Source: a virus | DNA: 64,000 nucleotides | Virus record (IMG/VR): IMGVR_UViG_3300046328_000506 | Span: 32,001-96,000 of that record | Strand: one strand, 5' to 3' | Part shown: positions 1 through 19,748 of the stretch, one piece after another | How the letters are laid out: every line of letters starts with the position of its first letter | How positions within the stretch are numbered: position 1 is the first letter of the stretch | Program-made: the position numbers and the translations under genes | The notes under the pieces: model-generated | Told to the model about the DNA's origin: nothing | Seen by the model: only the letters and a program-made list of their open reading frames with translations | The model's database searches: none

Positions 1-552
1 AGTAGGGGCATACTCAACTGGTTTTTGTGTAGTAGATTCTGTTTGTTTTTTACCTACATAATCTTTTGTAGTATTAAAATACTTTAGTATAGCATTTGCT
101 TCATTAAGCCTTTTGCTTTCATTTTTTGTAGGTACTTCATCATCACTTTTACCTTTAAATATTTTTTGTAATAATTCACCAGCACCAGTTCTTGACCGTT
201 TTACTTCACCTGTTTCAGAATCTATTGGTTGAATTTCTTTTGTTTTTGTGTCAAACCTATACTGTGTAGGATTTTTTTCTAAATGCCGCACAGCAGCTTT
301 TAATGATTTTATTTCACTTTTTCCTAATTTCCTACCACCAATTTTACCAGAGTTGATAGCTGCGTTCATCATACTCATATTTGAACGAATACCTTCATCA
401 GCAGATTCTTTTAATCTTTCTTCTGATAATTGTGTAGTGGTATTATACAGTTTCTTATACCCAAGCATTTCCCCTTTGTCTTGCTTTTCTTTCTTTTCCG
501 ATTTTCCACCTTCTTGAAATTTACGTACAGTAGATATTAATTCTAATTTCAT
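1..552 (-). CDS. Partial ORF running off the window edge; putative virion internal protein with N-terminal RKFQEGG motif
   Basis: Own translation from ATG at 552: MKLELISTVRKFQEGGKSEKKEK..., open to position 1. Not in the supplied track because it has no stop in the window. Confidence 0.75.
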   Translation of the reverse strand, partial: MKLELISTVRKFQEGGKSEKKEKQDKGEMLGYKKLYNTTTQLSEERLKESADEGIRSNMSMMNAAINSGKIGGRKLGKSEIKSLKAAVRHLEKNPTQYRFDTKTKEIQPIDSETGEVKRSRTGAGELLQKIFKGKSDDEVPTKNESKRLNEANAILKYFNTTKDYVGKKQTESTTQKPVEYAPT

Positions 553-580
553 TTCTTTCTAATTTATATTGTTTACAAAT

Positions 581-859
581 TTAAACATTTGTATTGGAAG
601 ATTGTATAAGTATATCTTCTTCTAATTTAGTATAGCTAATTCCCAATGCCCTTAAATGCTCTGGAAATTCACTCAGGAACAACATCTCTATCTGAGATGT
701 ATTATCTCTGTCATCATCCGTAAGTATGTCTAATAGCCTCTTAATGATAAATAGCACTATGTCTATAATAGGCTTTGCTGCACTTGTGTTTGACAAGGAT
801 TTAGCTAACAAATCTATAAGAGTATTAAGTCCAAGTTTAATAAAATATTTGAATAACAT
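581..859 (-). CDS. Hypothetical protein, lysis-module neighbour
   Basis: 92-aa ORF directly downstream of the amidase; amphipathic N-terminus. Confidence 0.55.
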   Translation of the reverse strand: MLFKYFIKLGLNTLIDLLAKSLSNTSAAKPIIDIVLFIIKRLLDILTDDDRDNTSQIEMLFLSEFPEHLRALGISYTKLEEDILIQSSNTNV

Positions 860-860
860 A

Positions 861-1352
861 TTAATATTTGTTATGTTTTAAAATTGTAAAATTATCTTTA
901 TCATAAATATTTTTTTTAGGGACACCAAGTTCTTGTAAGTATTTTGGAACTGAAAAACAAGGGCATGCTTTTGCTGCAATTTGGTTATGACCTAAGATAA
1001 TAATCTCTGGATATTCTTTCAAATACCATTCAATTATTTCTTTCATTTTTTCTTTTTGTATGTCTGTACGATTATCAATAGGTTGTCCTTTTGCAGTTAT
1101 TCCGCCAATATACGATATGTTTATTGAATTACTATTTGATATATCAATGGTTTCATTTTTATATGCTTGAACTCCATTTGAAGGTTTGGTATTATCTATG
1201 TAACGTTTTACAACTCCATCTGGTTGTATAGTAACATGATAACCCTCTCTTTTCCACTTTAAAGAATTAAGGAAGAAGTGTTGTAGTTTCTGCCAATTCC
1301 AAGTTTGAGGACTGGCTGTTGTGTGTATTACTAAATATTTTATTGTTCTCAT
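861..1352 (-). CDS. N-acetylmuramoyl-L-alanine amidase (T7-lysozyme/Amidase_2 type endolysin)
   Basis: Zn-amidase motifs VIHTTA, GYHVTI, ISYIGG, ILGHNQ, KACPCF. Confidence 0.92.
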   Translation of the reverse strand: MRTIKYLVIHTTASPQTWNWQKLQHFFLNSLKWKREGYHVTIQPDGVVKRYIDNTKPSNGVQAYKNETIDISNSNSINISYIGGITAKGQPIDNRTDIQKEKMKEIIEWYLKEYPEIIILGHNQIAAKACPCFSVPKYLQELGVPKKNIYDKDNFTILKHNKY

Positions 1353-1367
1353 GTGTGTTGTTTTGTC

Positions 1368-1733
1368 TTAACGTGTTAGTTTTACAAATATACCACCAAA
1401 TAATCTAACTGCTCTATAGTAGATTTTAGCGTACTTAAAGTTGTTTTCTTGCATCATTTTTAAAAACAAATCATCTATTTCTTTTCTTGTAAAAGGCATA
1501 CCATTTTCTAAGAATTGGTATAAAGCATCATGTACTAAAGAAGGATAATAAGTTTCTTTAAAATCTGGTGATAACGTAGTCCCATCCCAAGCATATCCAG
1601 CTTTTACAACCACATCTCCCCTTTTATCAATAATTACCCAAATCTTACCAAGTAAATCTCTACCTGTAAAAGATTTATTCTTTATCTCAGTAGAGTATGT
1701 AAAGTCTTTCTCTAATGTAAATTTATATTTCAT
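1368..1733 (-). CDS. DUF1353-like protein
   Basis: Motifs GYAWDG, SLVHDALY, RKEIDDLF, YRAVRLFG. Confidence 0.75.
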   Translation of the reverse strand: MKYKFTLEKDFTYSTEIKNKSFTGRDLLGKIWVIIDKRGDVVVKAGYAWDGTTLSPDFKETYYPSLVHDALYQFLENGMPFTRKEIDDLFLKMMQENNFKYAKIYYRAVRLFGGIFVKLTR

Positions 1734-1960
1734 AAGTAGTTATATAAGATTTTAGTGAGCATTTCGTTTATTGGTAAGTTTTTGTAAGTATCAAAATCCT
1801 TTCCAATTAAAAATATAGGAATACCTGATACTGTAGTGGAATTACCCTTGTATGTTACAATAATATCATAGACTATATTAATGTATGTTTCTGTTAAATC
1901 ATAATTAATAATATCTACATTTCTTTCTATTCCATGATTAGATGGTATTTTTATTATCAT
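1730..1960 (-). CDS. Hypothetical protein
   Basis: 76-aa ORF coupled to the next gene by an ATGA overlap. Confidence 0.55.
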   Translation of the reverse strand: MIIKIPSNHGIERNVDIINYDLTETYINIVYDIIVTYKGNSTTVSGIPIFLIGKDFDTYKNLPINEMLTKILYNYL

Positions 1961-1967
1961 GTTAGTA

Positions 1968-2003
1968 AAAATGGTTCTAACCTTTTTAAAATTAGAACCA
2001 TTT
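1968..2003 (-). terminator. Probable intrinsic terminator hairpin
   Basis: AAATGGTTCTAA / TTAGAACCATTT inverted repeat in an intergenic gap. Confidence 0.55.
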
Positions 2004-2017
2004 AGTTTTTTAAGTTA

Positions 2018-2437
2018 TTATAAATTAGTCCAATTTGCCCAAGATTTAAACTCATCTACTTTATTATCTGAAACTAACTGAAGATAGCTTTCTAAAGCTA
2101 TATCTTGTAAATCAGTAGTAGTAGAAGTTTGTAATGTTAATACTGCGTTTTCAATAGTCCAAGTCATTGTAATTTCATAAGTAAAAGCACCAGTGTTAAC
2201 TAAAGAATATGTACCATTACTGCTTGTATCTTGAATACTAAATTCAGGTAACTGTTTGTATGCACTTTCAGCATTTTGTACTACATTCTGACAAATATTT
2301 ATAAATTCTTCAGAAGCTTCCGTATAAGGGACTGTAATTGTATTTACAAGCGTTTGACTTACGTTAATATTTGCTTCAATTCCAATTGTATAAGGAATAA
2401 TTGGCGTTCCTGTAGAAATAATTTGATAACTGTTCAT
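2018..2437 (-). CDS. Hypothetical (tail-associated?) protein
   Basis: 139-aa Thr/Ile-rich ORF downstream of fibre genes. Confidence 0.6.
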   Translation of the reverse strand: MNSYQIISTGTPIIPYTIGIEANINVSQTLVNTITVPYTEASEEFINICQNVVQNAESAYKQLPEFSIQDTSSNGTYSLVNTGAFTYEITMTWTIENAVLTLQTSTTTDLQDIALESYLQLVSDNKVDEFKSWANWTNL

Positions 2438-2456
2438 TTGTTTTTTATTTTAATTG

Positions 2457-4226
2457 TTAAAAATATGTTGTTGAAACTACTACTTCATTGGCGACTCCTG
2501 TTGCTGTATTGTCATTATTTACTATACCCGATGTAATGGCTAAACTAAAACCTGTCGGAAGTCTTATTCCAAATGCACCACAATCTATAGAAACACTCTG
2601 CCCTGCTGGAATAAAATAATTCAATGTAGCATTTGTAGTTCCCATTACAACTGAAGCACTCAAAGAGTTAAATATTTTCAACCATCTTCCTGTCGCAGAT
2701 ATATTACTACAATGTATATTATTCAATACTGTAGCACCTGATTTAATTTGAATTAAACTATTTGTAGCATTAGACACTATATTAGTATGTGTAGAAGCCC
2801 CTTGTGCTGTGCTACCTACATTTGTTACTACACTGTTTGCACCTAAATTGGCAGTTACTGTACCTGAAACAGCTTGGGTATTTACATAAGTAGGAATTGT
2901 AGATTGTAAACCGTTTACTAATAAAGTAGTTGTTCCTCCTGTAGTTGCTGTAGTAAGCCTTAAAATAAAATATCTCGCTATTACATTTGTTATTCTTAAA
3001 GCCGTAGTATTAAAAGTACCAGAAATACCTCCACCAATAGGGTCAAATAACTGCCCATTTTGTCTTACGGCTAAAGTAGGGTCATTACTCCACTGCCCTG
3101 TAATTACACCTGTCGTACCTATTGAAGTACATTGTATAGATAAACTTCTAAGTTGTGAGCAATCTATTACTAATAAATCTGTGTTGATAGGTATCACTCC
3201 TACTTGTGAAAAAGAAAATGGTGTTAATGGTACTTGTGTTGCTTGAATATTTTCGCTAGCACTCATTACACCTATCTCTAACTTATTGTGATTTTTACAA
3301 GTAATATAATCAAGAATAATGTTGGTATTAGTTGCAGGAGGAGTTGCTCCATTTAATACTGCAACACCAGCACCCATTGTATCATATTGACTTGGAATAA
3401 CCCTTGTATGTCTTGCTACTCTTATTTCGTTAATATAAAAAACTACTTCTTCAGTAAGTAATTCGACACGATATTCTAAACTTGTTGCTGTAGTTAAACC
3501 GTTTGGAATTGTTACAACTGTCTCTTGAATTTCATTACCTGTCGGAGCTATTGTTGGATTTCTTGCAGTTTGACATTTTATTGTAGTATTTGTCGTACCA
3601 TCTGCTTGAAATCTTGCAAACCATTTAGTAGGAGAACCCTCATCATTTAAACCAATATTAATTGTCTGATTTATAATTCTTTGAGATATACTTAAACCTG
3701 CTCTATATACTAATGGAGCTACATCAACAAATCTACCTAATACTGTTACAGCACTTGCTGTAGTTCCTGCGGCTATCGTAGCTGCTCCAGAAGCCACTGA
3801 TGTTGTTGCTCCTGTTCCAGTAAAACTTCTTACTATTTGTCTACTTGCTACACCTGTTGTAGTTGCCCCTGTATAAGGTGTTTCAAGAATTATTTGTGTA
3901 GGAGTAATTGTATCTATTTGAACAAGTGTGCTCTCAGCATGACCGTCAATATTTACATAATCACCTGCTTTTACATCATAAGTATTAAATGCTGTTCCCG
4001 TAACTATATCACTTCCATTTGTAAAAGTACAAGTGCCAATACTAACTCTTAAAGAAGTATTTGCAAAGTTTACTCTAAAAGTACCTTCATCTGTTAAAGC
4101 AGCACCTCTCATCATAAGATTACCATCTGCATCAAAAGAGGCTTCTACTACATCTGGCGCAATAGGAGCTACTGGAGGATAATAATCTTTTTGTATTCCG
4201 TTTAATCTAAAATTTTCTGCGTACAT
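2457..4226 (-). CDS. Tail fibre / receptor-binding-like structural protein
   Basis: 589 aa, Thr/Gly/Val-rich beta-type composition; N-terminal GTCTFTNGSDIVTG module resembles one in 35894..36673. Confidence 0.65.
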   Translation of the reverse strand: MYAENFRLNGIQKDYYPPVAPIAPDVVEASFDADGNLMMRGAALTDEGTFRVNFANTSLRVSIGTCTFTNGSDIVTGTAFNTYDVKAGDYVNIDGHAESTLVQIDTITPTQIILETPYTGATTTGVASRQIVRSFTGTGATTSVASGAATIAAGTTASAVTVLGRFVDVAPLVYRAGLSISQRIINQTINIGLNDEGSPTKWFARFQADGTTNTTIKCQTARNPTIAPTGNEIQETVVTIPNGLTTATSLEYRVELLTEEVVFYINEIRVARHTRVIPSQYDTMGAGVAVLNGATPPATNTNIILDYITCKNHNKLEIGVMSASENIQATQVPLTPFSFSQVGVIPINTDLLVIDCSQLRSLSIQCTSIGTTGVITGQWSNDPTLAVRQNGQLFDPIGGGISGTFNTTALRITNVIARYFILRLTTATTGGTTTLLVNGLQSTIPTYVNTQAVSGTVTANLGANSVVTNVGSTAQGASTHTNIVSNATNSLIQIKSGATVLNNIHCSNISATGRWLKIFNSLSASVVMGTTNATLNYFIPAGQSVSIDCGAFGIRLPTGFSLAITSGIVNNDNTATGVANEVVVSTTYF

Positions 4227-4229
4227 ATA

Positions 4230-4658
4230 TTAGCTTAATATAAAGTTAGTATCGTTTGAAATTATTGTAATAAAAGTATTTTGATGTCTAATTATTAAAT
4301 TTACATCATTATTAATCGTTTGTCCTCCTGTTGTGATAACAGTAATAATATTACCTGTAGAATCTGTTTTTACTATTGATACTTCTTTACCAGCATTACT
4401 AATAGCAGTTGGTAAAGTAAGAGTAACATCACCTGAAGTACAATTTACTTGATAAATAGTATTATAAACTAAACTTGTATTTGTACTTATAGAAGATATA
4501 GTCGGAGGTGTAGGTGCTGAAGGAGTAGACGGATTATCTATCCAAGTACCAGCACTTCTCAGTTCTAATTTACCAGTATCTAAATTAAAAATTACATCTC
4601 CATTAGACCAACTTCTTGCTGCAATTTCAGCATTTGTATATCCTATATTTGCTTGCAT
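4230..4658 (-). CDS. Fibre-associated structural protein
   Basis: VNCTSGDVTLTLPTA...GKEVSIVKTD...GGQTIN module common in phage fibre/decoration proteins. Confidence 0.6.
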   Translation of the reverse strand: MQANIGYTNAEIAARSWSNGDVIFNLDTGKLELRSAGTWIDNPSTPSAPTPPTISSISTNTSLVYNTIYQVNCTSGDVTLTLPTAISNAGKEVSIVKTDSTGNIITVITTGGQTINNDVNLIIRHQNTFITIISNDTNFILS

Positions 4659-5068
4659 TATTTTACATATTTATTGAAATATCCAAGAGAATCACCTCTT
4701 GCTATTGCATTATTAATTAAATCATCAACTATTGTAGGTTGTGTAAGTAAAAATTGAAAGAAATCAAACTCACCTATTGGTTCACCTTTTGTATCTGTGT
4801 GTAACAAAGTTGGAGGTAAAGTAGAATTATCATATTCTAAATACTCACCAGTTAAACTATAAACTTGTTCGTTATTACTTGCAATTAATTCACCTGTTGT
4901 AGTTAGGTTTTCTATTACTTCCCCAAGATTATTCTCGTGGTATATTTTGACAAAGAATAATACTGAGTTAGCATCTTCTGAATCAAATAAAAATTTCTTC
5001 TTTTCAGCATAGTAAAATCTTTTTACTCCTGCTATTTTTGGATAATCTGATATGTATATTTTTGTCAT
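4658..5068 (-). CDS. Hypothetical protein
   Basis: 136-aa ORF in the fibre operon, TAATG coupling. Confidence 0.6.
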   Translation of the reverse strand: MTKIYISDYPKIAGVKRFYYAEKKKFLFDSEDANSVLFFVKIYHENNLGEVIENLTTTGELIASNNEQVYSLTGEYLEYDNSTLPPTLLHTDTKGEPIGEFDFFQFLLTQPTIVDDLINNAIARGDSLGYFNKYVK

Positions 5069-5078
5069 ATTTTGTATT

Positions 5079-5849
5079 TTAGTATGTTATTGTTGAACCA
5101 AGAGAATTAACCCAAGCACCACCACCTAAGTTAGACGTAGCACCAAAGCTATTAAGTGTTGTGTGCAGTTGGTTTGGGCTATTATCTGTGGCTTGCGTGC
5201 CTGACTTTTGATTAAAATTATAATTTACTACAATGTTACTTTCTAACCCACTTATGTTATTCCCAAAAGATGTATATAGTTGATTTATTTGTCCTACAGT
5301 TATGTTATTATTAAATATTTTAAAATCATACAAAATCATATTTTGAAAATTTGTATTTGCTGGCTGTAAGACTGGTGGGTTAATATCTGCATTAACACCT
5401 CCTATTGTCAAATAAGTATTTGATACATTTATGTTAGTAATCAATGCATTTGTACCTGTATTTACTAAAACACCATCAACATATAATAGCAAAGAAGTAC
5501 CATTTCTTACCATTGTTACTTGGTATGTTCTATTTAATGAAATAGTTGGACTGGTAATTACTACTGAGTTACCTGCTGAATTTCTAATAGTTGCATAAAA
5601 AACACCTGTGCTTAATACATATATACTATAATTAGGAACTCCATTATAAACACTAAAAACTATTCCGTCAACAGGATTTAATGAAATTACATTTACAATA
5701 GTAGAAATAGAGAAATTACCTGTTCCAAAGTTAAAAATACTTGCAGGAGAAGGTGTAAAGGTACTTTGATTTGTACCATTAAACTTTAAACCATTTCCAA
5801 TCTGATTGACTGTGATTAAGTCTGTATTTCCTTTTGTTAAAGTTTTCAA
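5079..5849 (-). CDS. LamG/concanavalin A-like lectin domain protein
   Basis: GNGLKFNG, NFSIS, VTMVRNG..LLYVDGVLV, LYDFKIFN, YNFNQKSG; paralogue of 5846..6601. Confidence 0.8.
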   Translation of the reverse strand: MKTLTKGNTDLITVNQIGNGLKFNGTNQSTFTPSPASIFNFGTGNFSISTIVNVISLNPVDGIVFSVYNGVPNYSIYVLSTGVFYATIRNSAGNSVVITSPTISLNRTYQVTMVRNGTSLLLYVDGVLVNTGTNALITNINVSNTYLTIGGVNADINPPVLQPANTNFQNMILYDFKIFNNNITVGQINQLYTSFGNNISGLESNIVVNYNFNQKSGTQATDNSPNQLHTTLNSFGATSNLGGGAWVNSLGSTITY

Positions 5850-6601
5850 TATGTTATGCTACCTCCTAAGCTATTTACCCATGAATTATTTACTCCTAAA
5901 CTTGTATTTGCAAAATTAGTAAGAGTTCCATTTAAGTTATTTGTAGATTTATCTATTAATGTATTCCCTTGTTTTTGATTAAAGTCGTAATTAGCAACTA
6001 TGTTAGAAGTAAGTCCTGTTAAATTTGTTCCAAAACTTTCGTATAATTGAGTAGCCTCCCCTGTAGAAAGAGCTTTATTAACTATCTTTAAATCGTATAT
6101 TATGTGATTAGCATAATAAGCGTAGTTTGGTAAATATACAACACTACCTAATTGCCAGTTTGTATATGCTTGTGTATTATCTGCCAATGTAAATCCCCCT
6201 GAATATAAAGGTATTGCCTCTGTTACTTGTCCATTGACATTAAAATATCCTGTTCCATCACCTCTTGCTATAAAAGAAACATTGTAAAGTACATTTATAG
6301 AAAGATTAACATTAATATATAAGTCTAATAATCGAGAATTTCCAGAAAACAACTGAACATCAATAAAAGAAGCAGCATATACTATTCTATAACTTCTTAA
6401 AGTAATTGAACTCGTATCTTGTGCTGAAAGAATATAATTGTTATTTACGCTAAACGCTTTTGGTGTAAATGAAAAATAGAAAGAAATTGGTGAAATTGGA
6501 GTAGTTGGTACACTATTTAACCCACTTCCTAAATTAACAAAATCATTTACTCCATCATATAACAAACCATTTCCTATCAAATTTGCTGTTCCTACATTCA
6601 T
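5846..6601 (-). CDS. LamG/concanavalin A-like lectin domain protein
   Basis: GNGLLYDGVNDFV, IYDLKIVNKALS, YDFNQKQG..LIDKS.N.LNGTL. Confidence 0.8.
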   Translation of the reverse strand: MNVGTANLIGNGLLYDGVNDFVNLGSGLNSVPTTPISPISFYFSFTPKAFSVNNNYILSAQDTSSITLRSYRIVYAASFIDVQLFSGNSRLLDLYINVNLSINVLYNVSFIARGDGTGYFNVNGQVTEAIPLYSGGFTLADNTQAYTNWQLGSVVYLPNYAYYANHIIYDLKIVNKALSTGEATQLYESFGTNLTGLTSNIVANYDFNQKQGNTLIDKSTNNLNGTLTNFANTSLGVNNSWVNSLGGSITY

Positions 6602-7935
6602 TACGCTAATTTAGTTAAGTTAAAGTTTGTAGAAGTTATCGTGTTATTCGCGTTTGCAGTTCCCCAAATTACTGTTACACTTAGAAGTTGAGATATTGTA
6701 GTATCAACAGTATTTGTAGCTGTATTAAGCAAACATATTTTTTCTTCTGTGGTATTATCTCTGAAATACTTAAATAAACCTTGTGAGAATATTGTACCAC
6801 TTACACCAGTTGTTCTATTAGTCAATTCAAAATCTAATTCAAATCTTCTTGTGCCAGTAATACTTAATAAAGTTGTTGCTGTTGTATCTAAAATAGTTAC
6901 AGCATTTAATTTTACTTGTATTCTAATAGTAGGTGGGATAGCGTCATCACCGATAAAACCTTGCACTCTACCTTTCAAAGTTTTACCAACCACAAAGAAA
7001 CTTGCAGGTAAAGAAAGAGTACCTTGCCCAGTCCCTAATAAAGTTGTTTCTGCTACAGTATTAGCTACTGTTTGACTTGCAGTTTGAGTAAATATTGTGG
7101 CGTTTAACCACTCGTTTATTCCACCTATGTCATATCTATAAGATTGTTGTGCTGAATCCCAAATATCTAATCCTGTTATTTCTTGTGGAGGTGCTGCTAT
7201 ACCTGATAAATTGCCTAAAAATCTATTATTCTGAATGTTTTGAATTTCAGTAAGTAAGATTTGAGCAAAAGGAAGGCTACGCCAAGTAGTACCATCGTAC
7301 CACTCTAATCTACCTGTTGTTGTATTTGAATACAATTGACCAATTAAAGGCGAAGGGATGGCAACACTTCTATTAGCTGTAGTTCCACTAAATCTTTCAA
7401 CAAAAGTGTTAAAAGCTATATTAGTAATATTACCAGAACTTCTACCAACTAAACTATTTGTTGTAACAGCAAAATCTTGTTCATTAGCTAATGCTGCTGT
7501 AGGATTAGATTTGATTGTATTTGCAGCACCTTGAGCTAATTGTGTGTTAGTAATTGAGTTATTTATTACTATTGCAGTAATTGAAGGAGTTCCATCATTA
7601 TACGTAAAATCAATTGTAGAACTATCTACTAAAATCGTACCTACAGCGTCTTGCGCTTGCTCATCTGTATAAAGTGCACCACCAACTTCCATATCCCACA
7701 ATACCCATGTAGCTGATAAATAAAGAATACCATCACCAGGCTGAACAGTAGTTCCTCCAACTGTACCACTATTAGTTCCGATTAACCATAAATCACCTTC
7801 AGTAGGAGTAGACGGATAACTTGGATTTGTATTGGCATTAGTAATAATACCTTTAACATTTATTACATTACCACTTACTACACCAGTTTCATAATAGTCT
7901 AACTCGTTTGTAAATGGATTAAATTTCCATGCCAT
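6601..7935 (-). CDS. Tail fibre-like structural protein
   Basis: MAWKFNPFT N-terminus, EQAQDAVG repeat-type motif, GQLYSNTTTGRLEWYDGTTW motif typical of fibres. Confidence 0.65.
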   Translation of the reverse strand: MAWKFNPFTNELDYYETGVVSGNVINVKGIITNANTNPSYPSTPTEGDLWLIGTNSGTVGGTTVQPGDGILYLSATWVLWDMEVGGALYTDEQAQDAVGTILVDSSTIDFTYNDGTPSITAIVINNSITNTQLAQGAANTIKSNPTAALANEQDFAVTTNSLVGRSSGNITNIAFNTFVERFSGTTANRSVAIPSPLIGQLYSNTTTGRLEWYDGTTWRSLPFAQILLTEIQNIQNNRFLGNLSGIAAPPQEITGLDIWDSAQQSYRYDIGGINEWLNATIFTQTASQTVANTVAETTLLGTGQGTLSLPASFFVVGKTLKGRVQGFIGDDAIPPTIRIQVKLNAVTILDTTATTLLSITGTRRFELDFELTNRTTGVSGTIFSQGLFKYFRDNTTEEKICLLNTATNTVDTTISQLLSVTVIWGTANANNTITSTNFNLTKLA

Positions 7936-11567: not shown

Positions 11568-11984
11568 ATGAAGAAAATAATTTTAATAGTAGGATTAGTA
11601 TTAGTGAGTTTAGTGGGATATAGTCAGGCAGATTGGGTAGCAGCAGATAGTTTATCAGAAGTGGTTGTGAACGGAAATGAATACGAAGAAGTGAAATCTC
11701 AATTAACTACTATTTATAAAGGAAAGATTTTTAAACCTACTACAGATTTAACAAATACACCAAAAGATGTTAGAGATTGGTTTCTTAGCGGTGAGGAATT
11801 AAAAAGAAAAGATACATGGATTTTTATGATACCATTTAATAAAAAACATATAGCATTAAATGATATAACAAATAGGTATAAATATTCTACAATAAAAGAT
11901 GTTGGTGATAAAAAATACTTTACTTTTTTTATTGAAAAGACAGAAGATGGAAGATATAAATACACAACTTTGTTTTTTAATTAA
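11568..11984 (+). CDS. Secreted/periplasmic hypothetical protein
   Basis: Signal peptide MKKIILIVGLVLVSLVGYS|Q (Bacteroidota Gln +1 rule). Confidence 0.7.
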   Translation: MKKIILIVGLVLVSLVGYSQADWVAADSLSEVVVNGNEYEEVKSQLTTIYKGKIFKPTTDLTNTPKDVRDWFLSGEELKRKDTWIFMIPFNKKHIALNDITNRYKYSTIKDVGDKKYFTFFIEKTEDGRYKYTTLFFN

Positions 11985-11989
11985 AATGT

Positions 11990-12024
11990 AAAAAGGAGAG
12001 ATTAAGTCAATCTCTCCTTTTTTT
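11990..12024. terminator. Bidirectional intrinsic terminator
   Basis: AAAAAGGAGAGATT / AATCTCTCCTTTTTTT between convergent genes. Confidence 0.85.
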
Positions 12025-12031
12025 ATGCTCT

Positions 12032-13084
12032 TTACAAATCTTTTATTTTTTCAAACATTTCTTTTGACAACGGATATGTTCCTGTATGACTTTGCATATT
12101 AGCTAATGCACGTTTAAATCTACCAGAAGGGTCTGCCGCAGCAATTTCATTTATTTGACTTGCATGAGATGTGGTATCCCAATTTTTTATTACTTCTGAT
12201 TTACTATTATCACGCAAATTTATACGAGATACAGTAACTCTACCTAAATTTTGTCCAGCGTTATTTGTTACAGATAAAGTCATTTCGTATTTATAATCAT
12301 TTGGATTTCCACCACCACCATCACCTCCAGTTTTTATCGGAGTAGGAGTATTAAAATCCATTTTAGATGCTGCTAAATACTCTAAATTTTCATCTAACCC
12401 AAGCTGCTTATTTATACCTCTTTTATAAGTAGTTGCATTAGATTTCAATGCTTGATTTCTATTGTAAGCATCTGATAACAGTTGAGCTTGCTCTTTTGTA
12501 ATTTGATTTGATTGAAACATTTGAGCAATTCTTTCATCATCAGGATTACCAAATTTAGCAGCTAAATCTCCTTGTGATGCTCTCATCTTATCTTGGTACG
12601 CTACATTACCTGAATTTTTACCATAAGCAGTATTGCTTGTATCAGTATATTTCTCAGTATATAAAGTACGTTTAGCACCGTCTTCTGGCTTAATATCTCT
12701 TGGTTTTGTTGTAGCACTATACCCAGAAGCCATAGTTTTATTTACAGTATTTACTATAGGCTTTTTACCCATTCTACCTGCATTTTGAAACTTAGGAATA
12801 CCACCACCCATTTTAAATTTAGGGATTATAATTCCCCCAAACTTTTGAGAAGGTATCATTTCAACAGACTCTTGCTCACCTTGTGGAGATGTAACACCTA
12901 ACATTTCTGCAACCATACCTATAATCTCATTACCCAATTCTTCATTAGGTTCTTGCATATAGGCTTGTATCATTGCAACTAATTGTGTTTCAGGATTTTC
13001 TTGTTCTTCCTGTGGCATTTGTTCTTGGGGAGCTTCCATCATTTCTCCCCCTTCTTGATAAATTCTTAGATAATTTTTTTTCAT
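12032..13084 (-). CDS. Putative virion internal (cargo) protein, KFxxGG family
   Basis: RIYQEGG, QKFGG, KFKMGG, KFQNAG; acidic Q/E/M module homologous to 13097..13510. Confidence 0.65.
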   Translation of the reverse strand: MKKNYLRIYQEGGEMMEAPQEQMPQEEQENPETQLVAMIQAYMQEPNEELGNEIIGMVAEMLGVTSPQGEQESVEMIPSQKFGGIIIPKFKMGGGIPKFQNAGRMGKKPIVNTVNKTMASGYSATTKPRDIKPEDGAKRTLYTEKYTDTSNTAYGKNSGNVAYQDKMRASQGDLAAKFGNPDDERIAQMFQSNQITKEQAQLLSDAYNRNQALKSNATTYKRGINKQLGLDENLEYLAASKMDFNTPTPIKTGGDGGGGNPNDYKYEMTLSVTNNAGQNLGRVTVSRINLRDNSKSEVIKNWDTTSHASQINEIAAADPSGRFKRALANMQSHTGTYPLSKEMFEKIKDL

Positions 13085-13096
13085 ATAAGTTTTATA

Positions 13097-13489
13097 TTAT
13101 TTTGATTTTTTCTCTTTGTTTAAATACCCATTCTTCATAACCTCTTGATATGCTTTATTTGCAAGAGTTGCTTTCCCACCCTTTTCCATTTTTTTACTTT
13201 TCATAAACTTTGGTTTAGGTTTAGACATACTACCACCACGTTTAAATTGTGGTAAACCACTTTCATTTTGCATAGGTTCTTCTTGCGGTAACATCATTTC
13301 AGCAAGCATCCCAATTAGTTGTTGTTGTGCTTCAAAAGAAGGTTGTATTAGATATTCCTCAACCATAGCTTTTATATCTGCACCTTCTGCTTGTGTTTCC
13401 TCTTGTGGCATTTCCTCCATTTGAGGTGAAGGCATACTATCTACACCCTCTTGAAATTTTCTTAGTTTTAATTTATTATTATTACTCAT
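13097..13489 (-). CDS. Putative virion internal protein, KFxxGG family
   Basis: RKFQEG, QFKRGG, KMEKGG. ATG at 13489 preferred because a TAACTTTG promoter box (13508-13515) overlaps the track's TTG start. Confidence 0.65.
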   Translation of the reverse strand: MSNNNKLKLRKFQEGVDSMPSPQMEEMPQEETQAEGADIKAMVEEYLIQPSFEAQQQLIGMLAEMMLPQEEPMQNESGLPQFKRGGSMSKPKPKFMKSKKMEKGGKATLANKAYQEVMKNGYLNKEKKSK

Positions 13490-13633
13490 GTTAAATGTTT
13501 TTGTTTGCAAAGTTAGTTATTAAAATAGACAAATGTTATTGACTGTGTATTGTTCATGTAATTTAGCGTAAATTTATTTATGTATTTAGCTAATGTAGTT
13601 TTGTAGGTATCTAATGCTATAAAATCAGAAAGA

Positions 13634-15013
13634 TTATTCTTCAACATATTGTGGGTTTTGTTTATTGTGAATATCTATTATTTTGATTAATTCTTTTCCA
13701 ATTTTTTCTAAGTCTTTTGGTGTTTTAGCTAATAGTGTTTTATCAATTAATTTCTTAGTATGTTTTCTTGAAAATATCCTTTCTCCACCTTGCAATTCTG
13801 TTTGCACTTCTCCATTTTCATCTAATAGATACATGCCACCTTTTTTTAGTTTAGATAAGATATTGCCTCCTAATTCATGTTTATTCCATTTAGAAGCGTT
13901 TTGTGCAAATACAGCTCTTTTTTTCGTAAGGGGATTTTTAGAATGTGTAAGTTCTTCTGTACTTTTACCTGTACGTTTTTTAGTTTCAGTAAATTTACCT
14001 TTGTTTTTCGGGTCTATATTTATCCCACCTTTTTCTAATTTAATACTTTTAAGGAATGTATTTTTATTATAATCTATATTTTGTTTTTCAAAATCATTAA
14101 TTACATCTTTTGATATAGATAATCTATTACTTTTATCTTTAACTTTTCGTAGTAAATCAGCTATACCATCAATCATATCTTTTGATTTAATAGGAAGTGC
14201 TGTATATAAATTCTCCCCTAATTGAGCTAAACCTTTTGTATTACTTATTTTCCTTAAATAACCTTGAACTGATTTGTTTTTATTTTCAACTAATTTACCA
14301 CTACTCGTAGAGTACCCATCTAATGTGTGGTCTCTTACAGTATTAGTTTTAGATAATACAAATTCCATTGTTGTATCACCTTGATTTAATTTGTTATTTA
14401 TAACCCCACCATCTTCAAATTTACAGCCATCTTCACATTTCCATTTTTTTCTTGCTAATCTTAATCTTGAATTAGGGTTCTTTGCTGCTTTTGGAAACAT
14501 TTTCATTTGTCCTGCACTTCTGGCACAATAAGATTTCTTTCTACTTCCCCCTTCTGGTTGTGGTGGTTTTAAATTACTTCCAGGATTTTCTCTGTTATAA
14601 GAATCTCTGCCTTTCTGATTCAGCCCACCCGTCTTCGATTGTCCTTCAGTCCTTGTCCAAGCCCCTCCTTGTTTGTATTTTATAATATCGCCAGTTTTAA
14701 TCTTAGCATAGATTGGTAATTCTAATACAGCATCAGTATTGTATGTTGTTAGCTTCTCACTATTTGGGTCATTGCGTTTAACTACATTAGTAACTACACC
14801 TTTTTTTATAAAAGCTAATTTTAATGGAAATCCTACTCCAGCCATTGTAATTGATTTCTCTTTACCCTGCTCTGGAAATTTTAATAGCATATTTGAAGGT
14901 TCAGATTTACCTCTCTGCCCTTGTTTTAATTCTTCGTTAGTTTCTGCTAATTCTACATTTAAAGGTGCATTATTAACAGTAATTGTTTTATTTTTGAATC
15001 TTAGTTTTTCCAT
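13634..15013 (-). CDS. Modular protein: DUF192-like N-domain plus small basic modules (DUF6321-like), separated by KxxxGG motifs
   Basis: VELAET...MLLKF...M.GV.FPL.LAFI...AVLEL (DUF192-like); AWTRTEG.SKTGGLN.KGR.SY...RKKSYCAR; IDPKNKGKFT...KRAVFAQNA.KW. Confidence 0.65.
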   Translation of the reverse strand: MEKLRFKNKTITVNNAPLNVELAETNEELKQGQRGKSEPSNMLLKFPEQGKEKSITMAGVGFPLKLAFIKKGVVTNVVKRNDPNSEKLTTYNTDAVLELPIYAKIKTGDIIKYKQGGAWTRTEGQSKTGGLNQKGRDSYNRENPGSNLKPPQPEGGSRKKSYCARSAGQMKMFPKAAKNPNSRLRLARKKWKCEDGCKFEDGGVINNKLNQGDTTMEFVLSKTNTVRDHTLDGYSTSSGKLVENKNKSVQGYLRKISNTKGLAQLGENLYTALPIKSKDMIDGIADLLRKVKDKSNRLSISKDVINDFEKQNIDYNKNTFLKSIKLEKGGINIDPKNKGKFTETKKRTGKSTEELTHSKNPLTKKRAVFAQNASKWNKHELGGNILSKLKKGGMYLLDENGEVQTELQGGERIFSRKHTKKLIDKTLLAKTPKDLEKIGKELIKIIDIHNKQNPQYVEE

Positions 15014-16442
15014 TTCTAATGCTTTTAAATTCTTTTGTATTATTATGTGTGTTAGCCATAAGCTGCTGCTTAAAAAAGTTTCCTATATCTTGAAGCGAAG
15101 CTGAACCGTTTTTATGTTTTTGTACTAATCTATCTAATTGTGTAGAATTATCTTTTGTTAATATTAATTCATTTGATTCTATTTCAGCAGTTTTCTCACA
15201 ATTACCATCTGTACTACAATAGACCACAGGAATACCTTTACCTCCAAACCCTAATTCTTGTGGGATATTATTTCTATTTTTATGTAGTACACCTTTTGGG
15301 ATTATGTTGATGCCACCTGTTTGAAACTTAAAAGGACTCACTCCTACTTTATCTATTATAGGTTCTCTACTTGCTATTTTAGATTTAGCACGAGGAACAC
15401 TCATATCAATTTTTGGTTCTCTTTCTGGTTTAACTGCATATTTATCAGCTAATCTTTCTGTGAGAGGCTTGCCCTCTCTAATTCTTGGTACATTGCTATC
15501 CATTTTTTCATCAATCATATAAGGTTGATTTGGGTACTTATAATCTTGATAACCAACAGGTTCACTTACTCTATCTGTATTAGTTGAAGTTTGGTTTCTT
15601 TCTTCTTGTGTGAGTAGTGGTTTATATTGGTGTGTATTATCTATTCTTTGTAATTCTCTATTTAATTCATTAAACTTTATTGCATATTCATCAGCAGTTA
15701 ATTCTCCTGCACTATCATACAATTCTTTAAGTTTATTTTTTAAGAATGTTGTAGGATTATTTTCTCCCCCTTGCTGGAATTTTAATTTACGGAATTTTAA
15801 TTCCCCCCCTGTGTTATAATCATTAAAACTTTTACCCACAGCTGTATTTGCTGTACCTAATTGTCCAAACTTTTTAAGTCCTTGCTTTACAACATTTGAA
15901 GCAAACTTTCCTGCTCCTGGAATTGGGATTAAACTTGCCCCCAATCCAGCACCATAACTTGCAGCATCTGTATAATTTCCTTTTGCTACATTTTCTAATA
16001 AGCCATAAGCATTAGCTACGGTTGATGTTCCTGGTAATGTTTCTAAACCAGCTCGTACAACATTTTTAGCTATTTGTCTATTTTCAGTTCTATCAATATT
16101 TTCTTCCCTTTGATTTAAACTTTGTTGTGCATTTCTTTCTTCAATAGATGGGAAATTCAACTTCTCTTTTAGAGTTGGGGCTAATGGTTTAAATTGTTTC
16201 TGTTGTACCCCAGTAGAATCTCTTTGTACGCTTTCATATTTGCTTTGTAAGGCATTATCTTTTCCCAGACGTATATTTGTACCACCTGACTGTAATAATG
16301 GTTTATAAGGCAATTGTGAGCCTGATTTGTAAAAAGGAAATTTTATTTTCAAATTTATAGGGTAGGGTGTAGACTGAAAATCATCGTGTTTTTTAACACC
16401 ACGCTTTTTCATCTTATTAAATTTTATTTTATCAGTTTCCAT
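14988..16442 (-). CDS. Putative virion internal protein, KFxxGG family
   Basis: LLQSGG, KFQQGG, KFQTGG; C-terminal IIPKGVLHK...KGIPVV...AEIESNELIL module. Confidence 0.65.
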   Translation of the reverse strand: METDKIKFNKMKKRGVKKHDDFQSTPYPINLKIKFPFYKSGSQLPYKPLLQSGGTNIRLGKDNALQSKYESVQRDSTGVQQKQFKPLAPTLKEKLNFPSIEERNAQQSLNQREENIDRTENRQIAKNVVRAGLETLPGTSTVANAYGLLENVAKGNYTDAASYGAGLGASLIPIPGAGKFASNVVKQGLKKFGQLGTANTAVGKSFNDYNTGGELKFRKLKFQQGGENNPTTFLKNKLKELYDSAGELTADEYAIKFNELNRELQRIDNTHQYKPLLTQEERNQTSTNTDRVSEPVGYQDYKYPNQPYMIDEKMDSNVPRIREGKPLTERLADKYAVKPEREPKIDMSVPRAKSKIASREPIIDKVGVSPFKFQTGGINIIPKGVLHKNRNNIPQELGFGGKGIPVVYCSTDGNCEKTAEIESNELILTKDNSTQLDRLVQKHKNGSASLQDIGNFFKQQLMANTHNNTKEFKSIRNGKTKIQK

Positions 16443-17230
16443 TACGAAAATATGTTATTGTTATCTTTGTAGATTGCCATTATTTCAGATAGTTTTTCTT
16501 TTATATATTTTACTGTAGTATGTTCTTCTATTGTTTTAGTGCAATCTTTATCTATTGCTACAAGCAAACTTCCAAGTAGTGCAAAGTTCTTACCATCTCT
16601 TTCTATATTAATTACATTATTTGGTAGATTATCGTTATCTATATGCTCTATTAAAATAGGATAAGATATAAGTATTTCTAATTCATGTTGTTCTAATATT
16701 CCAGCAACTAACAATGGTAGGTTCTTTGATGTTTTATTATAAAATAAACACTCTAGCTTTTCGTATTTAGCAAGTTCCTCATAATGAGAAGATAAAGGCA
16801 TTGCTTGATAGTTGTATATTGTAGAATGTTTTATACTAATAGCTTCTTGAAATCTAAAAGAAAAATTTTTAAAACCTTTTGCTACTCCATTGTGATATAT
16901 TGCAATGCTAACGGTTTGAGCATCTAAGTTTTCTCTAAGTTCTTTTAGTATATGATTTATCTTAATTCCATCAAGTAATACATTCCTATTTAGTTTGTAT
17001 TCTAACATTTTATCTTTTAACACCTCTTCTCTCTGTGCTTGTTTTCTAAGTTCTATTACAGCTAATTCAGTTTCAACAGTTTCTATTTGCTGGTCTTGTG
17101 CTTGTTTAAATTTTAACTTAGTAGCGTAATAATCATATAACAATTTAGCACCCTCACGTAAAAGATAAATAAGTCCCCCAAAAACTGTTATTAATAAAAT
17201 GTTGTATTGTTCTATAACTGTCTGTAACAT
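16442..17230 (-). CDS. Membrane-anchored protein (N-terminal TM, coiled coil, GAF-like C-domain)
   Basis: TM ILLITVFGGLIYLL; ILKELRENLDAQTVSIAIYHNG motif. Confidence 0.6.
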   Translation of the reverse strand: MLQTVIEQYNILLITVFGGLIYLLREGAKLLYDYYATKLKFKQAQDQQIETVETELAVIELRKQAQREEVLKDKMLEYKLNRNVLLDGIKINHILKELRENLDAQTVSIAIYHNGVAKGFKNFSFRFQEAISIKHSTIYNYQAMPLSSHYEELAKYEKLECLFYNKTSKNLPLLVAGILEQHELEILISYPILIEHIDNDNLPNNVINIERDGKNFALLGSLLVAIDKDCTKTIEEHTTVKYIKEKLSEIMAIYKDNNNIFS

Positions 17231-17234
17231 GATT

Positions 17235-19748
17235 TTATCTTTTAAATTTTAGTGGAACTCCTCCCTGTTTCATTGTTGGAATACTACCCTGTTTATTTTG
17301 TTGTAAATATTGATTATATGCTTGCTGTAACTGTTGTTGCATAGTAGTATCAGTAGCTTGTATTTGTGTAATTTTACCTTCTTGTATCATTTGATTAACA
17401 AACTCTTGATAACTTAATTGCTTATTTGGAACTTGTTGCACGTTAGCTTGCTGACCTCCAATTAAATTAGGTAACATTCCTGTAATTGCACCTGTTATAT
17501 TACCTGCTCCTGTGGGACTTGTACCACTTCCAAACATACTTCCGACACCCTGCATTACAGCAGCATTACTTAATAATGAAGTCAATCCTCCTAATTGATG
17601 TTTGTTTTTATTCTTTAAGTATACATTGCTCCAAAGACCTCTTTTAGTTTCTTTCCCATTTTTTGTAATATATGTGTTCTTATCTTTTAAATAACCACCT
17701 TTTTTATAACCTGTAACACTTATCATTGGTTTAAATTTTGTATCAGGTTTCCTTGTGTTTGTAGTACCACGTATTACTTTTTTAGTTCTACCTGTATCAT
17801 CACTTAGTTCATCAACAATGTTATAACCTGTATTTGCTTTTTTATTTATATTAAAGTTTTCATACAAAGTTCTTTTTTGTGTGGGCTCAAAAGGTTTATA
17901 ATCACTAAATGTATAGTGCGAAATACCAGATATAGATGTTGGGTGTCCTATTGTTTCAGCACCAAGTCTGTCAAAACTAATGCCGTTATCATTAGCCATA
18001 TTTGCTTGTTGTTCTCCTAATTTATTAGCTTCTTTAATTTTCCCAGCTTTAAATAGTTTTGATGCTTGATAACCAAGTTCTTTTATTTTTTCTAATATAT
18101 CTGGATTTGTACCACCAGTTTGCAATCTCTTAGCTCTTATAGTAAATGGTTTCAACATTGTAGGTTTCTCAGCAATTCTTTCTTTTGTTTTTGGGTCATA
18201 GTAAATCCTATCGTATAATTGCATTGGAGTACCTAATCCCACATCTGATTTTTTATTTTTTTCAAAAACATTTGGTGCTAAATCCCACTTATCATAAAAG
18301 CTAACGTAATCACCCTTTTCATCTTTGCCAACATTTGCTGTGTAATTTCCCATAACAGAAGCATCTATATCTTGTAAATTCTTTTTCCCAAAAGGGAGAA
18401 GTGGTAAATTATTTTTTAATGCTTTAATGCGTTCTCTTTCTTCTGGCAGTTGTGCTTCATCACTTAATGATACTGCCATTTCATCATCAATACTTAATCC
18501 TTTTGTATCTGTATGAGCTTTTCTATAAGTTTCAAAAAGTTTAGTTTTTATGTCATCATCTTTAAAAGTATAGTATGTATCATTCTTATTATCTCCTTTT
18601 GACGGACTTGTTTTAGATTTAACTATAGTGCCGTTGTCTTGATAACTTTCGTCTCCACCTAAATACATTTTAAAAGCATCCATTCTTCTTTTATCTCCAG
18701 CATCAGGTTCACCCATATTGCGATTGTTTTCCGTAACTTTTTTAAAAATAGAATTTGCTTTATCTAAAAAATTTGAATTATTTTCTACTTTTACATCTTC
18801 ACCATAACCAAATGGATGAATGTTTTCACTTACCCATTTACTTACGCCAGACAGTTCTTTTTTTTGTATAGGTACATTAGCTGATGGATTTTGTTTTTTC
18901 CATTTTTCCGCCATTACTTTTTCAGTATTATTTTTAGGATTTTTTACAAATGCAGGAACATTACCCCCCTGCTGAAACTTCTCTATAACTATTATTTGTT
19001 TTTCAGCATTAGGTATTTGTGTAATAAAATCTCTTAATGACTTACCTGAGCTTTTAGCTGATTGTTTTATCTTTTCTTTTGTTGAGTTATCATACTTCTT
19101 ACCTTTACCAACACCACTCATTTCATGTATTCCATCTATAATCTGTTGCGGTAAGTCAAATAGTATATCTGTATCTATTCCATCAGTGTCTTTATTACAA
19201 CTACAATCAGTTACTCCTCCTTTTTGGAATTTAAGTTTCCCACCTTTACGAAATGACCTCATACCAAACGCAGGACTATTAAAACTATTTTGTTGTTGCA
19301 TAAGTCCTTGATTAATACCGCTTTGATTAGCCTTATTTATTTGAGCTTCTTTTTGCTTTTGTAATTGCTTTTTAATTTCTTCTAATTTTTCATCATTAGA
19401 ATTGTCTTTAACTCCAAATATTTTTCCAAGTGGTGTAGCTGCAATAGCTCCTGTTACATTTCCTTTTGATAAGTTAGATAACATATTTACACTCGAACCA
19501 ATTGGGTCTAATGTGCTTTTTAGTACACCACCAGCAATAGAACTATTATCTTGGCAAACTTCTTTCCCTGTAACTGGGTCTATTTCACAATCTTCTTTCC
19601 CAAACTTCTTAGATAAAGCTGCTGCTGTGTTCATTACTTGCCCTGCACCAGGAACAAAAGCATCTGCCACACCAGATACAGTTTGTCTTGCCATATCTGC
19701 TGTAGCATTTGGCACTTTTGCACCACTATAAAATTTTAACTTTTTCAT
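17235..19748 (-). CDS. Large modular putative cargo protein, KFxxGG family
   Basis: At least seven KxxxGG motifs; lies directly after the muzzle gene, where crAss-like phages encode cargo protein. Confidence 0.65.
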   Translation of the reverse strand: MKKLKFYSGAKVPNATADMARQTVSGVADAFVPGAGQVMNTAAALSKKFGKEDCEIDPVTGKEVCQDNSSIAGGVLKSTLDPIGSSVNMLSNLSKGNVTGAIAATPLGKIFGVKDNSNDEKLEEIKKQLQKQKEAQINKANQSGINQGLMQQQNSFNSPAFGMRSFRKGGKLKFQKGGVTDCSCNKDTDGIDTDILFDLPQQIIDGIHEMSGVGKGKKYDNSTKEKIKQSAKSSGKSLRDFITQIPNAEKQIIVIEKFQQGGNVPAFVKNPKNNTEKVMAEKWKKQNPSANVPIQKKELSGVSKWVSENIHPFGYGEDVKVENNSNFLDKANSIFKKVTENNRNMGEPDAGDKRRMDAFKMYLGGDESYQDNGTIVKSKTSPSKGDNKNDTYYTFKDDDIKTKLFETYRKAHTDTKGLSIDDEMAVSLSDEAQLPEERERIKALKNNLPLLPFGKKNLQDIDASVMGNYTANVGKDEKGDYVSFYDKWDLAPNVFEKNKKSDVGLGTPMQLYDRIYYDPKTKERIAEKPTMLKPFTIRAKRLQTGGTNPDILEKIKELGYQASKLFKAGKIKEANKLGEQQANMANDNGISFDRLGAETIGHPTSISGISHYTFSDYKPFEPTQKRTLYENFNINKKANTGYNIVDELSDDTGRTKKVIRGTTNTRKPDTKFKPMISVTGYKKGGYLKDKNTYITKNGKETKRGLWSNVYLKNKNKHQLGGLTSLLSNAAVMQGVGSMFGSGTSPTGAGNITGAITGMLPNLIGGQQANVQQVPNKQLSYQEFVNQMIQEGKITQIQATDTTMQQQLQQAYNQYLQQNKQGSIPTMKQGGVPLKFKR

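Follow-up and report, generated by a model that had tools for sequence, protein, structure and literature searches.

Why should a series of mostly unrelated proteins, encoded close together in one virus, carry the same short peptide ending in Gly-Gly at their N-termini, between their modules and near their C-termini? The question is raised by a window of 64,000 nucleotides, bases 32001-96000 of the single 130,171-bp virus record IMGVR_UViG_3300046328_000506 (about 76% complete by CheckV estimate), the source of which is a crAss-like phage. Crassviruses are the most abundant viruses of the human gut, and we know of no account of how the several megadaltons of protein inside their particles are selected, packaged and ejected. 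A first-pass annotation of the sequence had taken the peptide for a candidate signal of polyprotein processing or of capsid loading. The motif is a real short linear signal under selection at the level of the protein. The proteins that carry it are, judging by their sequences and gene order, most likely virion-internal, injected cargo, and the motif may work as an uncut docking-and-hinge tag for that cargo, a reading that is held tentatively, at a probability of roughly 0.45.

Copies in the window were listed with a loose pattern, x-[FYLMH]-[QEKR]-x-G-G, and with a strict one, [KR]-[FYLMH]-[QEKR]-x-G-G; the commonest form in this phage is K-[FYL]-[QKE]-x-G-G. Because the muzzle anchors the identification, the genes downstream of it are taken to form the cargo block. 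Directly after the muzzle and on the same strand come five motif-bearing open reading frames (ORFs), starting with ORF 17235 and ending with ORF 12032. Beyond the latter lie a plus-strand island (10118-11984) and then a tail-fibre/lysis block (581-9577), past which the cargo block resumes with ORFs of 688, 284 and 648 amino acids (aa) and terminates at an ORF of 5,724 aa (record 9823-26997). The muzzle and the motif-bearing ORFs of the window are as follows:

19768..24174, minus strand: muzzle protein (tail tip gatekeeper), Pfam crAss_MUZ 1.7e-57, 0 motif copies.
17235..19748, minus strand: putative cargo protein of 837 aa, the first gene after the muzzle and in the position of crAss001 C1, with seven copies (SFRKGG 19239-19256, KFQKGG 19215-19232, KFQQGG 18963-18980, RLQTGG 18111-18128, GYKKGG 17694-17711, KHQLGG 17586-17603, TMKQGG 17259-17276) and the N-terminal variant KFYSGA (19719-19736).
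14988..16442, minus strand: putative cargo protein of 484 aa with three copies (LLQSGG 16281-16298, KFQQGG 15765-15782, KFQTGG 15312-15329).
13634..15013, minus strand: putative modular cargo protein of 459 aa with five copies, among them KYKQGG (14663-14680), and the Pfam domains DUF192 (3.3e-07) and DUF6321 (3e-16).
13097..13510, minus strand: small putative cargo protein of 137 aa (TTG start) or 130 aa (ATG at 13489), paralogous to ORF 12032, with the variant KFQEGV at 13442-13459.
12032..13084, minus strand: putative cargo protein of 350 aa, with IYQEGG at residues 8-13 and KFKMGG and KFQNAG around residues 89-103 (13046-13063, 12803-12820, 12776-12793).
1..552, minus strand: the first 184 residues of the 688-aa putative cargo protein (record 30486-32552), with KFQEGG at residues 11-16 (505-522); its LFQQGG and SLKFGG fall outside the window.

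The copies named in the first-pass annotation are all present in the translations, as is its variant KAQEGA (41153-41170), which joins KFQEGV and KFYSGA among the near-variants. By the loose pattern, the six ORFs listed hold 20 copies, which are sometimes in tandem and only 8-10 residues apart. DMEVGG, in a tail-fibre-like ORF (6601-7935), is probably a chance copy. The ORFs had also been described as otherwise unrelated, which is true in general and fails for ORFs 12032 and 13097, where about 120 N-terminal residues are common to both (E 1.6e-15).

With their high content of Lys (11.9%) and Gly (8.2%), the cargo ORFs might by composition alone yield such a motif as a chance artefact. In shuffles of the 67 ORFs of the window (n = 2000), the strict pattern had a mean of 0.34 and a maximum of 4 against 15 observed, and the loose pattern a mean of 2.87 and a maximum of 9 against 23 observed. 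Across the whole record, 172 ORFs were shuffled with the composition of each protein kept (n = 1000). The nine minus-strand ORFs of the cargo block (4,149 aa) contain 15 strict copies versus 0.20 expected (maximum 3 in 1000 shuffles) and 24 loose copies versus 1.36, whereas the remaining 163 ORFs (35,903 aa) contain 3 loose copies versus 4.37 and a single strict copy versus 0.51, which is what chance gives. Neither the muzzle, portal, capsid and ring proteins nor the multidomain tail-fibre and giant ORFs contain the motif. The enrichment over a shuffled control on which the first-pass annotation depended is therefore real, relatives behave likewise, and an origin in composition is refuted.

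The Gly codons differ among the copies (GGT, GGA, GGG, GGC), indicating that selection acts on the protein. The flanking codons differ too, and this variation rules out a DNA repeat or an internal Shine-Dalgarno-like element. Lys is found at position -4 in 14 of the 24 loose copies, even though the loose pattern leaves that position free and the background of Lys is 12%. Numbered from the Gly-Gly as a protease site would be, the 24 copies have a hydrophobic or aromatic residue at P5 and Q, K or E at P4; the residues N-terminal of the Gly-Gly are conserved and the C-terminal side is variable. The pattern falls within the first 30 aa in 3 of the 9 cargo ORFs and in 0 of the 163 others.

This N-terminal position is conserved over large evolutionary distances. 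An exhaustive search with the 648-aa protein returned 13 matches, 12 of them full length (24-65% identity), and in 11 of these 12 the motif lies within the first 30 residues, compared with 0.26 expected from shuffles (maximum 4 in 2000). In the twelfth homologue, the motif is found where the N-terminus of the query aligns. Throughout this family the residues around the N-terminal copy change while the copy stays. Similarly, P0142, the orthologue of the 688-aa protein, keeps all three copies around a diverged central part. In MT835470, a human-gut crAss-like phage with a muzzle that is 32% identical, three successive cargo ORFs begin MKIQSKVARFMQQGG, MSQAIRKYQTGG and MEIINKIQKLQGGG; the first of these beginnings belongs to a 106-aa ORF laid out like ORF 13097. 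The cargo ORFs of MT835470 hold 6 copies versus 1.0 expected, three of them at residues 7-13, and its other ORFs 2 versus 1.7.

More distant crassviruses have a related peptide. In the C1 proteins of crAss001, DAC15, IAS virus, cr55_1 and cr118_1, [FYW]-x-x-G-G occurs 13 times versus 3.4 expected (0 of 1000 shuffles reach 13), at aligned positions that follow a basic N-terminus. The flavour depends on lineage, being KFQxGG here, F-A-x-GG in Steigviridae and T-F-x-x-GG-I-V-P in Suoliviridae. Judging from these sequences, aromatic-x-x-G-G would be the general crassvirus form of the motif, and the window is an unusually crisp, expanded version of an order-wide feature. The viral contig collection held no close relatives when queried with the muzzle; an alignment of the 837-aa family, which has six relatives besides the query, found 4 loci there, of which L005 and L006/L007 are informative. 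Translated with table 11, the late genes of two further loci, L002 (MT835492) and L017 (NC_055894, cr6_1), are interrupted by in-frame stops, for example 19 in the muzzle and 57 in the giant ORF of cr6_1, which fits the stop-codon recoding known from some crAss-like phages.

The first-pass annotation had placed the copies at the boundaries between modules, and this is borne out in ORF 13634. Here KYKQGG stands between DUF192 (residues 19-100) and DUF6321 (125-191), and KFEDGG follows DUF6321; then come a helical module, KLEKGG, the basic 'KNKGKFT' module, KHELGG, KLKKGG and a C-terminal hairpin-helix module. In the AlphaFold model of this ORF, the mean predicted local distance difference test (pLDDT) of which is 55.7, the copies are at helix ends or in low-pLDDT linkers. 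ORF 13097 starts with its KFQEGV variant and continues with an acidic P/Q/E linker, a short helical core and a basic tail that contains QFKRGG and KMEKGG. The C-terminal module of ORF 14988 reads 'GG-INIIPKGVLHK...GIPVV...EIESNELIL' and aligns with the C-terminus of the first post-muzzle gene in MT835470. The isolated modules gave nothing relevant in Pfam at E up to 10, and fold searches with the ORF 13634 model gave a best E of 3.3 in Foldseek and generic helical matches only in VIA (best Z 7.0).

Rearrangements in relatives are the strongest line of evidence for the boundary position, as far as sequence comparison can tell. When the window proteins were compared by BLAST with P0002, P0003, P0004 and P0009, 12 of 18 break-points fell within 6 aa of a copy, a zone that takes up 11-14% of the sequence (binomial p about 1e-6, with end-points that are not fully independent). 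The 1,415-aa protein P0003 has window modules in another order and includes the basic module that belongs to ORF 13634 in the window; P0004 spans from just after GG261 to GG684 of the 837-aa protein; P0002 lacks residues 178-254; and P0009 lacks residues 213-369 of ORF 13634. The plug-in cassette system that had been supposed is thus visible in modules that were moved, deleted or fused at motif copies. In the cargo block of MT835470, DUF192, assigned by eye, is a free-standing 188-aa gene (L001 26373-26939), and here it is fused to the N-terminus of ORF 13634.

The motif is not a part of DUF6321. Among the first 60 of 120 listed relatives of this domain (526 were found), 49 have no copy, and a copy just before DUF6321 occurs in only 3 of the 60: the query, its close relative P0009, and P0033. 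Two DUF6321 relatives from other phages, P0012 and P0013, have the Gly-Gly peptide 'Y-A-D-G-G-x-V-D-D-A-h-R-L-A' at the N-terminus and at module joints. On this sequence comparison, phages beyond the crAss-like ones may also have Gly-Gly seams, each lineage with its own flavour.

The likely nature of the motif proteins follows from their position and from one of their modules. In crAss001, the genes after the muzzle encode cargo C1 (gp45), cargo C2 (gp46) and the virion RNA polymerase subunits, and according to the cargo passages of the structural paper all of these were found in virions by mass spectrometry (MS), and their ejection is presumed (Bayfield et al. 2023, PMC10172136; PDB 7QOG, 7QOI, 7QOJ, 7QOL, 8CKB). 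Six post-muzzle genes of Cellulophaga phage phi14:2 are annotated as structural by tandem MS (MS/MS). The motif ORFs likewise start directly after the muzzle, the first protein is close in size to C1 (837 versus 842 aa), and a basic N-terminus followed by aromatic-x-x-G-G is common to both phages. Also in common is the basic module 'KNKGKFT...RKRAxFAQNA', where residues 323-377 of ORF 13634 match gp45 368-424 (47% identity, E 9e-11); homology to proven virion cargo is found at this level of the single module only. Gly-Gly brackets the module in ORF 13634, gp45, DAC15, IAS virus, P0003 and a 585-aa protein of L006. Unlike in crAss001, the cargo here is spread over at least 8 smaller ORFs, the motif is far more uniform and frequent, and similarity over the whole protein was not found between the 837-aa protein and gp45 (BLAST, best E 2.6), nor does the 837-aa protein have a homologue among PDB sequences. 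An equation of the C-terminal modules of ORFs 14988 and 13634 with the portal-bound domain of gp45 was rejected: the register seen by eye was reproduced, but at an hhalign E of 0.2 and a probability of 0.3%.

The motif ORFs also lie between the muzzle and the expected place of the virion RNA polymerase genes, for which the 5,724-aa ORF at the far end is only a candidate. In that ORF, Pfam shows only an SF1-helicase-like AAA_30/AAA_19 domain (residues 1446-1569), and by its position it should hold the virion RNA polymerase, by analogy with the 4,400-4,950-aa ORFs of Suoliviridae. The place after the muzzle, as for gp45 and gp46, and the module homologous to gp45 uphold the proposal of the first-pass annotation that these proteins are most likely virion-internal, and probably injected.

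In gp45 the Gly-Gly joints are at 209, 263, 427 and 562, flanking the two segments given as resolved by cryo-electron microscopy (cryo-EM), 214-245 in the tail barrel and 425-552 in the portal wing (PMC10172136). The resolved modules of gp45 therefore sit between joints, and the joints themselves, apart from 425-428, fall outside the ranges given in that text. A hinge would behave in this way, as would a handle after the departure of its partner, for example a scaffold. The crAss001 atlas located the cargo, and in its abstract and its passages on cargo and gp45 no signal is named and no such motif is mentioned (PMC10172136).

How, then, might the motif work? As an uncut docking-and-hinge tag, it would mark the N-termini, inter-module seams and C-terminal tails of cargo that is stored in capsid and tail and then ejected. 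Lys-aromatic-Gln would be a docking handle that is read during particle assembly, perhaps by something that the mature virion lacks or contains only in disordered form, such as a scaffold-like protein, or through cargo-to-cargo contacts. The Gly-Gly would be a hinge, with which each small module could fold and unfold by itself and pass through portal and tail independently of the others. Since every module would bear the same seam, recombination at identical seams would give working proteins, which would account for the cassette-like shuffling between ORFs and between phages. More than a flexible linker appears to be needed, because the residues upstream of the Gly-Gly are conserved, including the Lys at -4. 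Some observations weigh against this interpretation. No reader protein was identified, the N-terminal copy is found on three of the nine cargo-block ORFs by pattern, with variants on others, and presence in virions is known for relatives alone, from MS of crAss001 and the MS/MS annotation of phi14:2. The AlphaFold model behind the seam positions is poor. The remaining objections concern cutting.

It is possible, if doubtful, that the motif is instead a maturation cut site, at which polyproteins would be cut after the Gly-Gly by an unrecognised protease of the phage, of the missing part of the record, or of the host, with N-terminal leaders being removed and enzymes and small basic peptides released, as from adenovirus core-protein precursors. 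A protease site, too, would be conserved N-terminal of the Gly-Gly and free on its C-terminal side. Copies 7-22 residues from the N-terminus in many family members resemble the ends of propeptides, and short basic stretches are bracketed by copies, such as that from QFKRGG to KMEKGG in ORF 13097. The free reordering of modules between ORFs, with DUF192 fused in one phage and free-standing in another, fits released modules at least as well as an uncut tag. The reported MS peptides of gp45 (79-101, 181-190, 275-300 and 307-320) span no Gly-Gly joint (PMC10172136).

What speaks against cutting is in large part the search for an enzyme. Pfam was run on 160 of the 172 ORFs (all but 12 short ones of 50-59 aa, and with the giant ORF among them) and PHROGs on 30 ORFs from the head, tail and cargo genes; neither showed a peptidase family. 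Six-frame searches of the record for Peptidase_C48 and C5 (at E <= 1), C39, and the prohead protease families S78 and S77 gave 0 matches each, in a record that is 76% complete and with the limits that a host-supplied or novel protease would be invisible to family searches and that the family of the African swine fever virus (ASFV) protease, C63, was not searched by name. The cysteine or prohead protease for which the first-pass annotation had proposed a search of the rest of the genome was thus not found in the record. The hydrophobic residue is at P5 and not, as in the consensus of adenain/PLpro-type sites, at P4, and the spacing of tandem copies speaks against cutting as well. In crAss001, the joint A425-F-G-G428 lies within the range given as resolved and appears uncut, since that range begins A-F-G-G (PMC10172136). 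The authors treat gp45 as one chain that bridges tail and capsid, and 'cleav', 'proteoly' and 'protease' have 0 occurrences in the main text of the paper (PMC10172136). The argument for an uncut joint is in turn restricted to a single joint, which belongs to a distant phage and has another flavour (NAFGG), with a range taken from the text of the paper and not from coordinates. The idea of polyproteins cut after the Gly-Gly, as originally advanced, is not supported on these counts, and the evidence on cutting is not decisive. No beta-grasp domain, as a C-terminal Gly-Gly of the Ubiquitin/SUMO/Pup kind would need, is indicated before the copies in the ORF 13634 model. It is unlikely, though conceivable, that a Gly-Gly maturation exists throughout the order, with cuts at aromatic-Q-x-G-G by an unrecognised protease family or a host enzyme, in which case the motif would be loading tag and cut site in one. 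This would be a phage counterpart of adenovirus core maturation, in which leaders are stripped and enzymes and small basic DNA-associated peptides are freed.

Another unlikely explanation requires neither reader nor enzyme. The motif could be a passive seam, a helix or strand cap with a flexible Gly-Gly linker that was made uniform through repeated recombination and fusion, and the internal copies could be remnant N-termini of once separate genes. Copies at helix ends or in low-confidence linkers, break-points that coincide with copies, internal copies that resemble former N-termini (MRSFRKGG; MKSKKMEKGG) and the lineage-dependent flavours are all in keeping with such a seam. A mere linker would, however, have no need of a conserved Lys-aromatic-Gln, and the synonymous codon variation speaks against recent copying. 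Nor would it explain the N-terminal copy in homologues down to 24% identity with changed surroundings, or why other multidomain ORFs of this phage (tail-fibre, muzzle and giant) lack the motif. It is more improbable still that the motif is a handle directed at the host, to be read after ejection by an envelope or cytoplasmic factor that would pull the cargo in or place its modules, in the manner of the short epitopes used by colicin translocation domains. The absence of the motif from the resolved parts of the mature crAss001 virion, save at one joint, would agree with this, as would the cell-wall-related modules in relatives, such as the phage tail lysozyme and PG_binding_1 of P0007, and the change of flavour between phage lineages, few of which have a known host. 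Against it, neither a host for this phage nor a candidate partner in such a host can be named.

The other features considered are:

16442..17230, minus strand: 262-aa protein without the motif among the cargo genes, with an N-terminal hydrophobic helix and a GAF-like domain.
26270-27034, minus strand: ring protein 2 (Pfam).
30036-31484, minus strand: crassvirus major capsid protein (Pfam).
31514..32560, minus strand: very acidic protein of 348 aa and no known family, next to the major capsid gene on its upstream side.
38383-40725, minus strand: portal (phrog_6547, 4.2e-59).
40727..41260, minus strand: DUF5856 (Dps/ferritin-like) protein between terminase and portal (DUF5856 1.8e-17; phrog_858).
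41543-43747, minus strand: large terminase (phrog_6681, 1.2e-59).
46392..46928, minus strand: 178-aa ORF of no assigned function, with KYKNGG at residues 57-62 (46743-46760), the only strict copy beyond the cargo block.

The acidic 348-aa protein, for which Pfam and PHROGs gave no family match, is by inference only a candidate scaffold and a conceivable reader of the basic motif; co-folding of this protein (P0143) with the 130-aa form of the small cargo protein, run without controls, scored 0.00 and speaks neither for nor against binding. The DUF5856 protein may be a further cargo protein loaded into the particle, because its N-terminal leader, KIVKAQEGAMLPTQEPQ, resembles the leaders of the small cargo proteins of ORFs 13097 and 12032; the local similarity to the N-terminus of ORF 13097 is weak (E 0.78). 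The 262-aa ORF belongs to a large viral family. Its neighbours in the Atlas are viral clusters, some of them named GAF domain proteins (features 0.96-0.97; structure TM 0.62-0.69), and Pfam gives a weak HetE-N match under the cut-off. This GAF-like ORF is no candidate for a protease.

Within the 837-aa protein, a conserved 285-aa domain (residues 262-546, window 18111-18965) is bounded by KFQQGG and RLQTGG. P0002 and P0004-P0007 have this domain as well, and P0007 joins it to the phage tail lysozyme and PG_binding_1. Weak, recurrent pointers from its model (mean pLDDT 64.4) make a colicin M-like, lipid II phosphatase/degrading enzyme a lead for this domain. The Atlas gives a neighbour with Colicin_M at 0.84, under the 0.9 bar, Foldseek places syringacin M at rank 3 (E 0.47), and VIA lists pectocin M1 at Z 3.2, colicin M at 2.6, and syringacin M and PaeM at 2.4, with a best row of Z 3.6. 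At the level of sequence there is no match to the colicin M family; the invariant 'YDKWDL' of the domain may echo the 'DKYD' catalytic motif of colicin M.

Elsewhere in the window, the plus-strand island of three genes (10118-11984) separates the cargo block from the tail-fibre block. RepL-like genes are found twice, as the first gene of this island (5.5e-07) and at 57454-57966 on the minus strand (2.7e-08). The ribonucleotide reductase subunits at 48958-51693 and 51716-53665 both have inteins, with Intein_splicing and LAGLIDADG_3 in the large subunit and a weak Intein_splicing match, under the cut-off, in the small one.

An order-wide tag on cargo modules provides a direct experimental handle on the cargo of crassviruses. 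A loading tag would explain the free swapping of injected modules and would offer a way to put proteins of choice into crassvirus particles; a cut site would imply a new protease still to be discovered. In either case the motif aids annotation, as it picks out cargo proteins that have no detectable homology. Loading or processing signals of phage internal proteins are already known as a kind. Among the matches listed in literature searches on QxGG-type motifs, Crassvirales Gly-Gly motifs and crAss-like cargo proteolysis, no published description was found, and the motif is apparently an undescribed signal.

Several known systems resemble this one in part. Polyvalent proteins of phages and conjugative elements are defined by their effector domains, and a zincin-like MPTase domain often serves to process them (Iyer et al. 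2017, PMC5512222); in the main text of that paper, 'linker', 'glycine' and 'crAss' have 0 occurrences. The motif proteins have a comparable mix of domains (DUF192 with DUF6321 in ORF 13634), are likewise multi-module and shuffled, as seen in P0002, P0003, P0004 and P0009, have lysozyme-type modules in the relative P0007, and would be delivered together with the DNA. Unlike polyvalent proteins, they come with no MPTase or other processing peptidase in the scanned ORFs, the 5,724-aa ORF included.

Bacteriocin double-glycine leaders are cut by ABC transporters that contain a C39 peptidase. Here too a short N-terminal leader ends in Gly-Gly, whereas the consensus is another one, copies are also internal and C-terminal, the proteins would belong to a phage particle and are not exported peptides, and Peptidase_C39, the partner, is missing from the record as searched. 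Adenain, of clan CE, cuts (M/I/L)-X-G-G|X sites in core-protein precursors, and ASFV pS273R and the SUMO/Ulp proteases also use Gly-Gly sites. The terminal Gly-Gly, the basic and probably internal virion proteins and the several sites per protein are reminiscent of adenain substrates; unlike these, the motif has its hydrophobic residue one position further from the Gly-Gly and does not match the P4 consensus, and no clan CE protease (C5, C48) was detected as encoded. As no such enzyme was found in the record and the register of the site differs, the system is a member of neither the clan CE Gly-Gly protease systems nor the C39 double-glycine leader systems.

The capsid targeting sequence of phage T4 is N-terminal only and is removed by the prohead protease, whereas the copies described here are also internal and near the C-terminus and have no sequence similarity to it, and the loading role would be assigned to them by analogy. 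The internal proteins of T4 are diverse and have only the capsid targeting sequence in common, which loads them into the scaffolding core (review PMC3012670). In both phages, a short peptide, N-terminal in many of the proteins here, is the sole common feature of diverse proteins that are internal and injected in T4 and most likely so in this phage, and the capsid targeting sequence can be regarded, by analogy, as the closest functional precedent for the motif.

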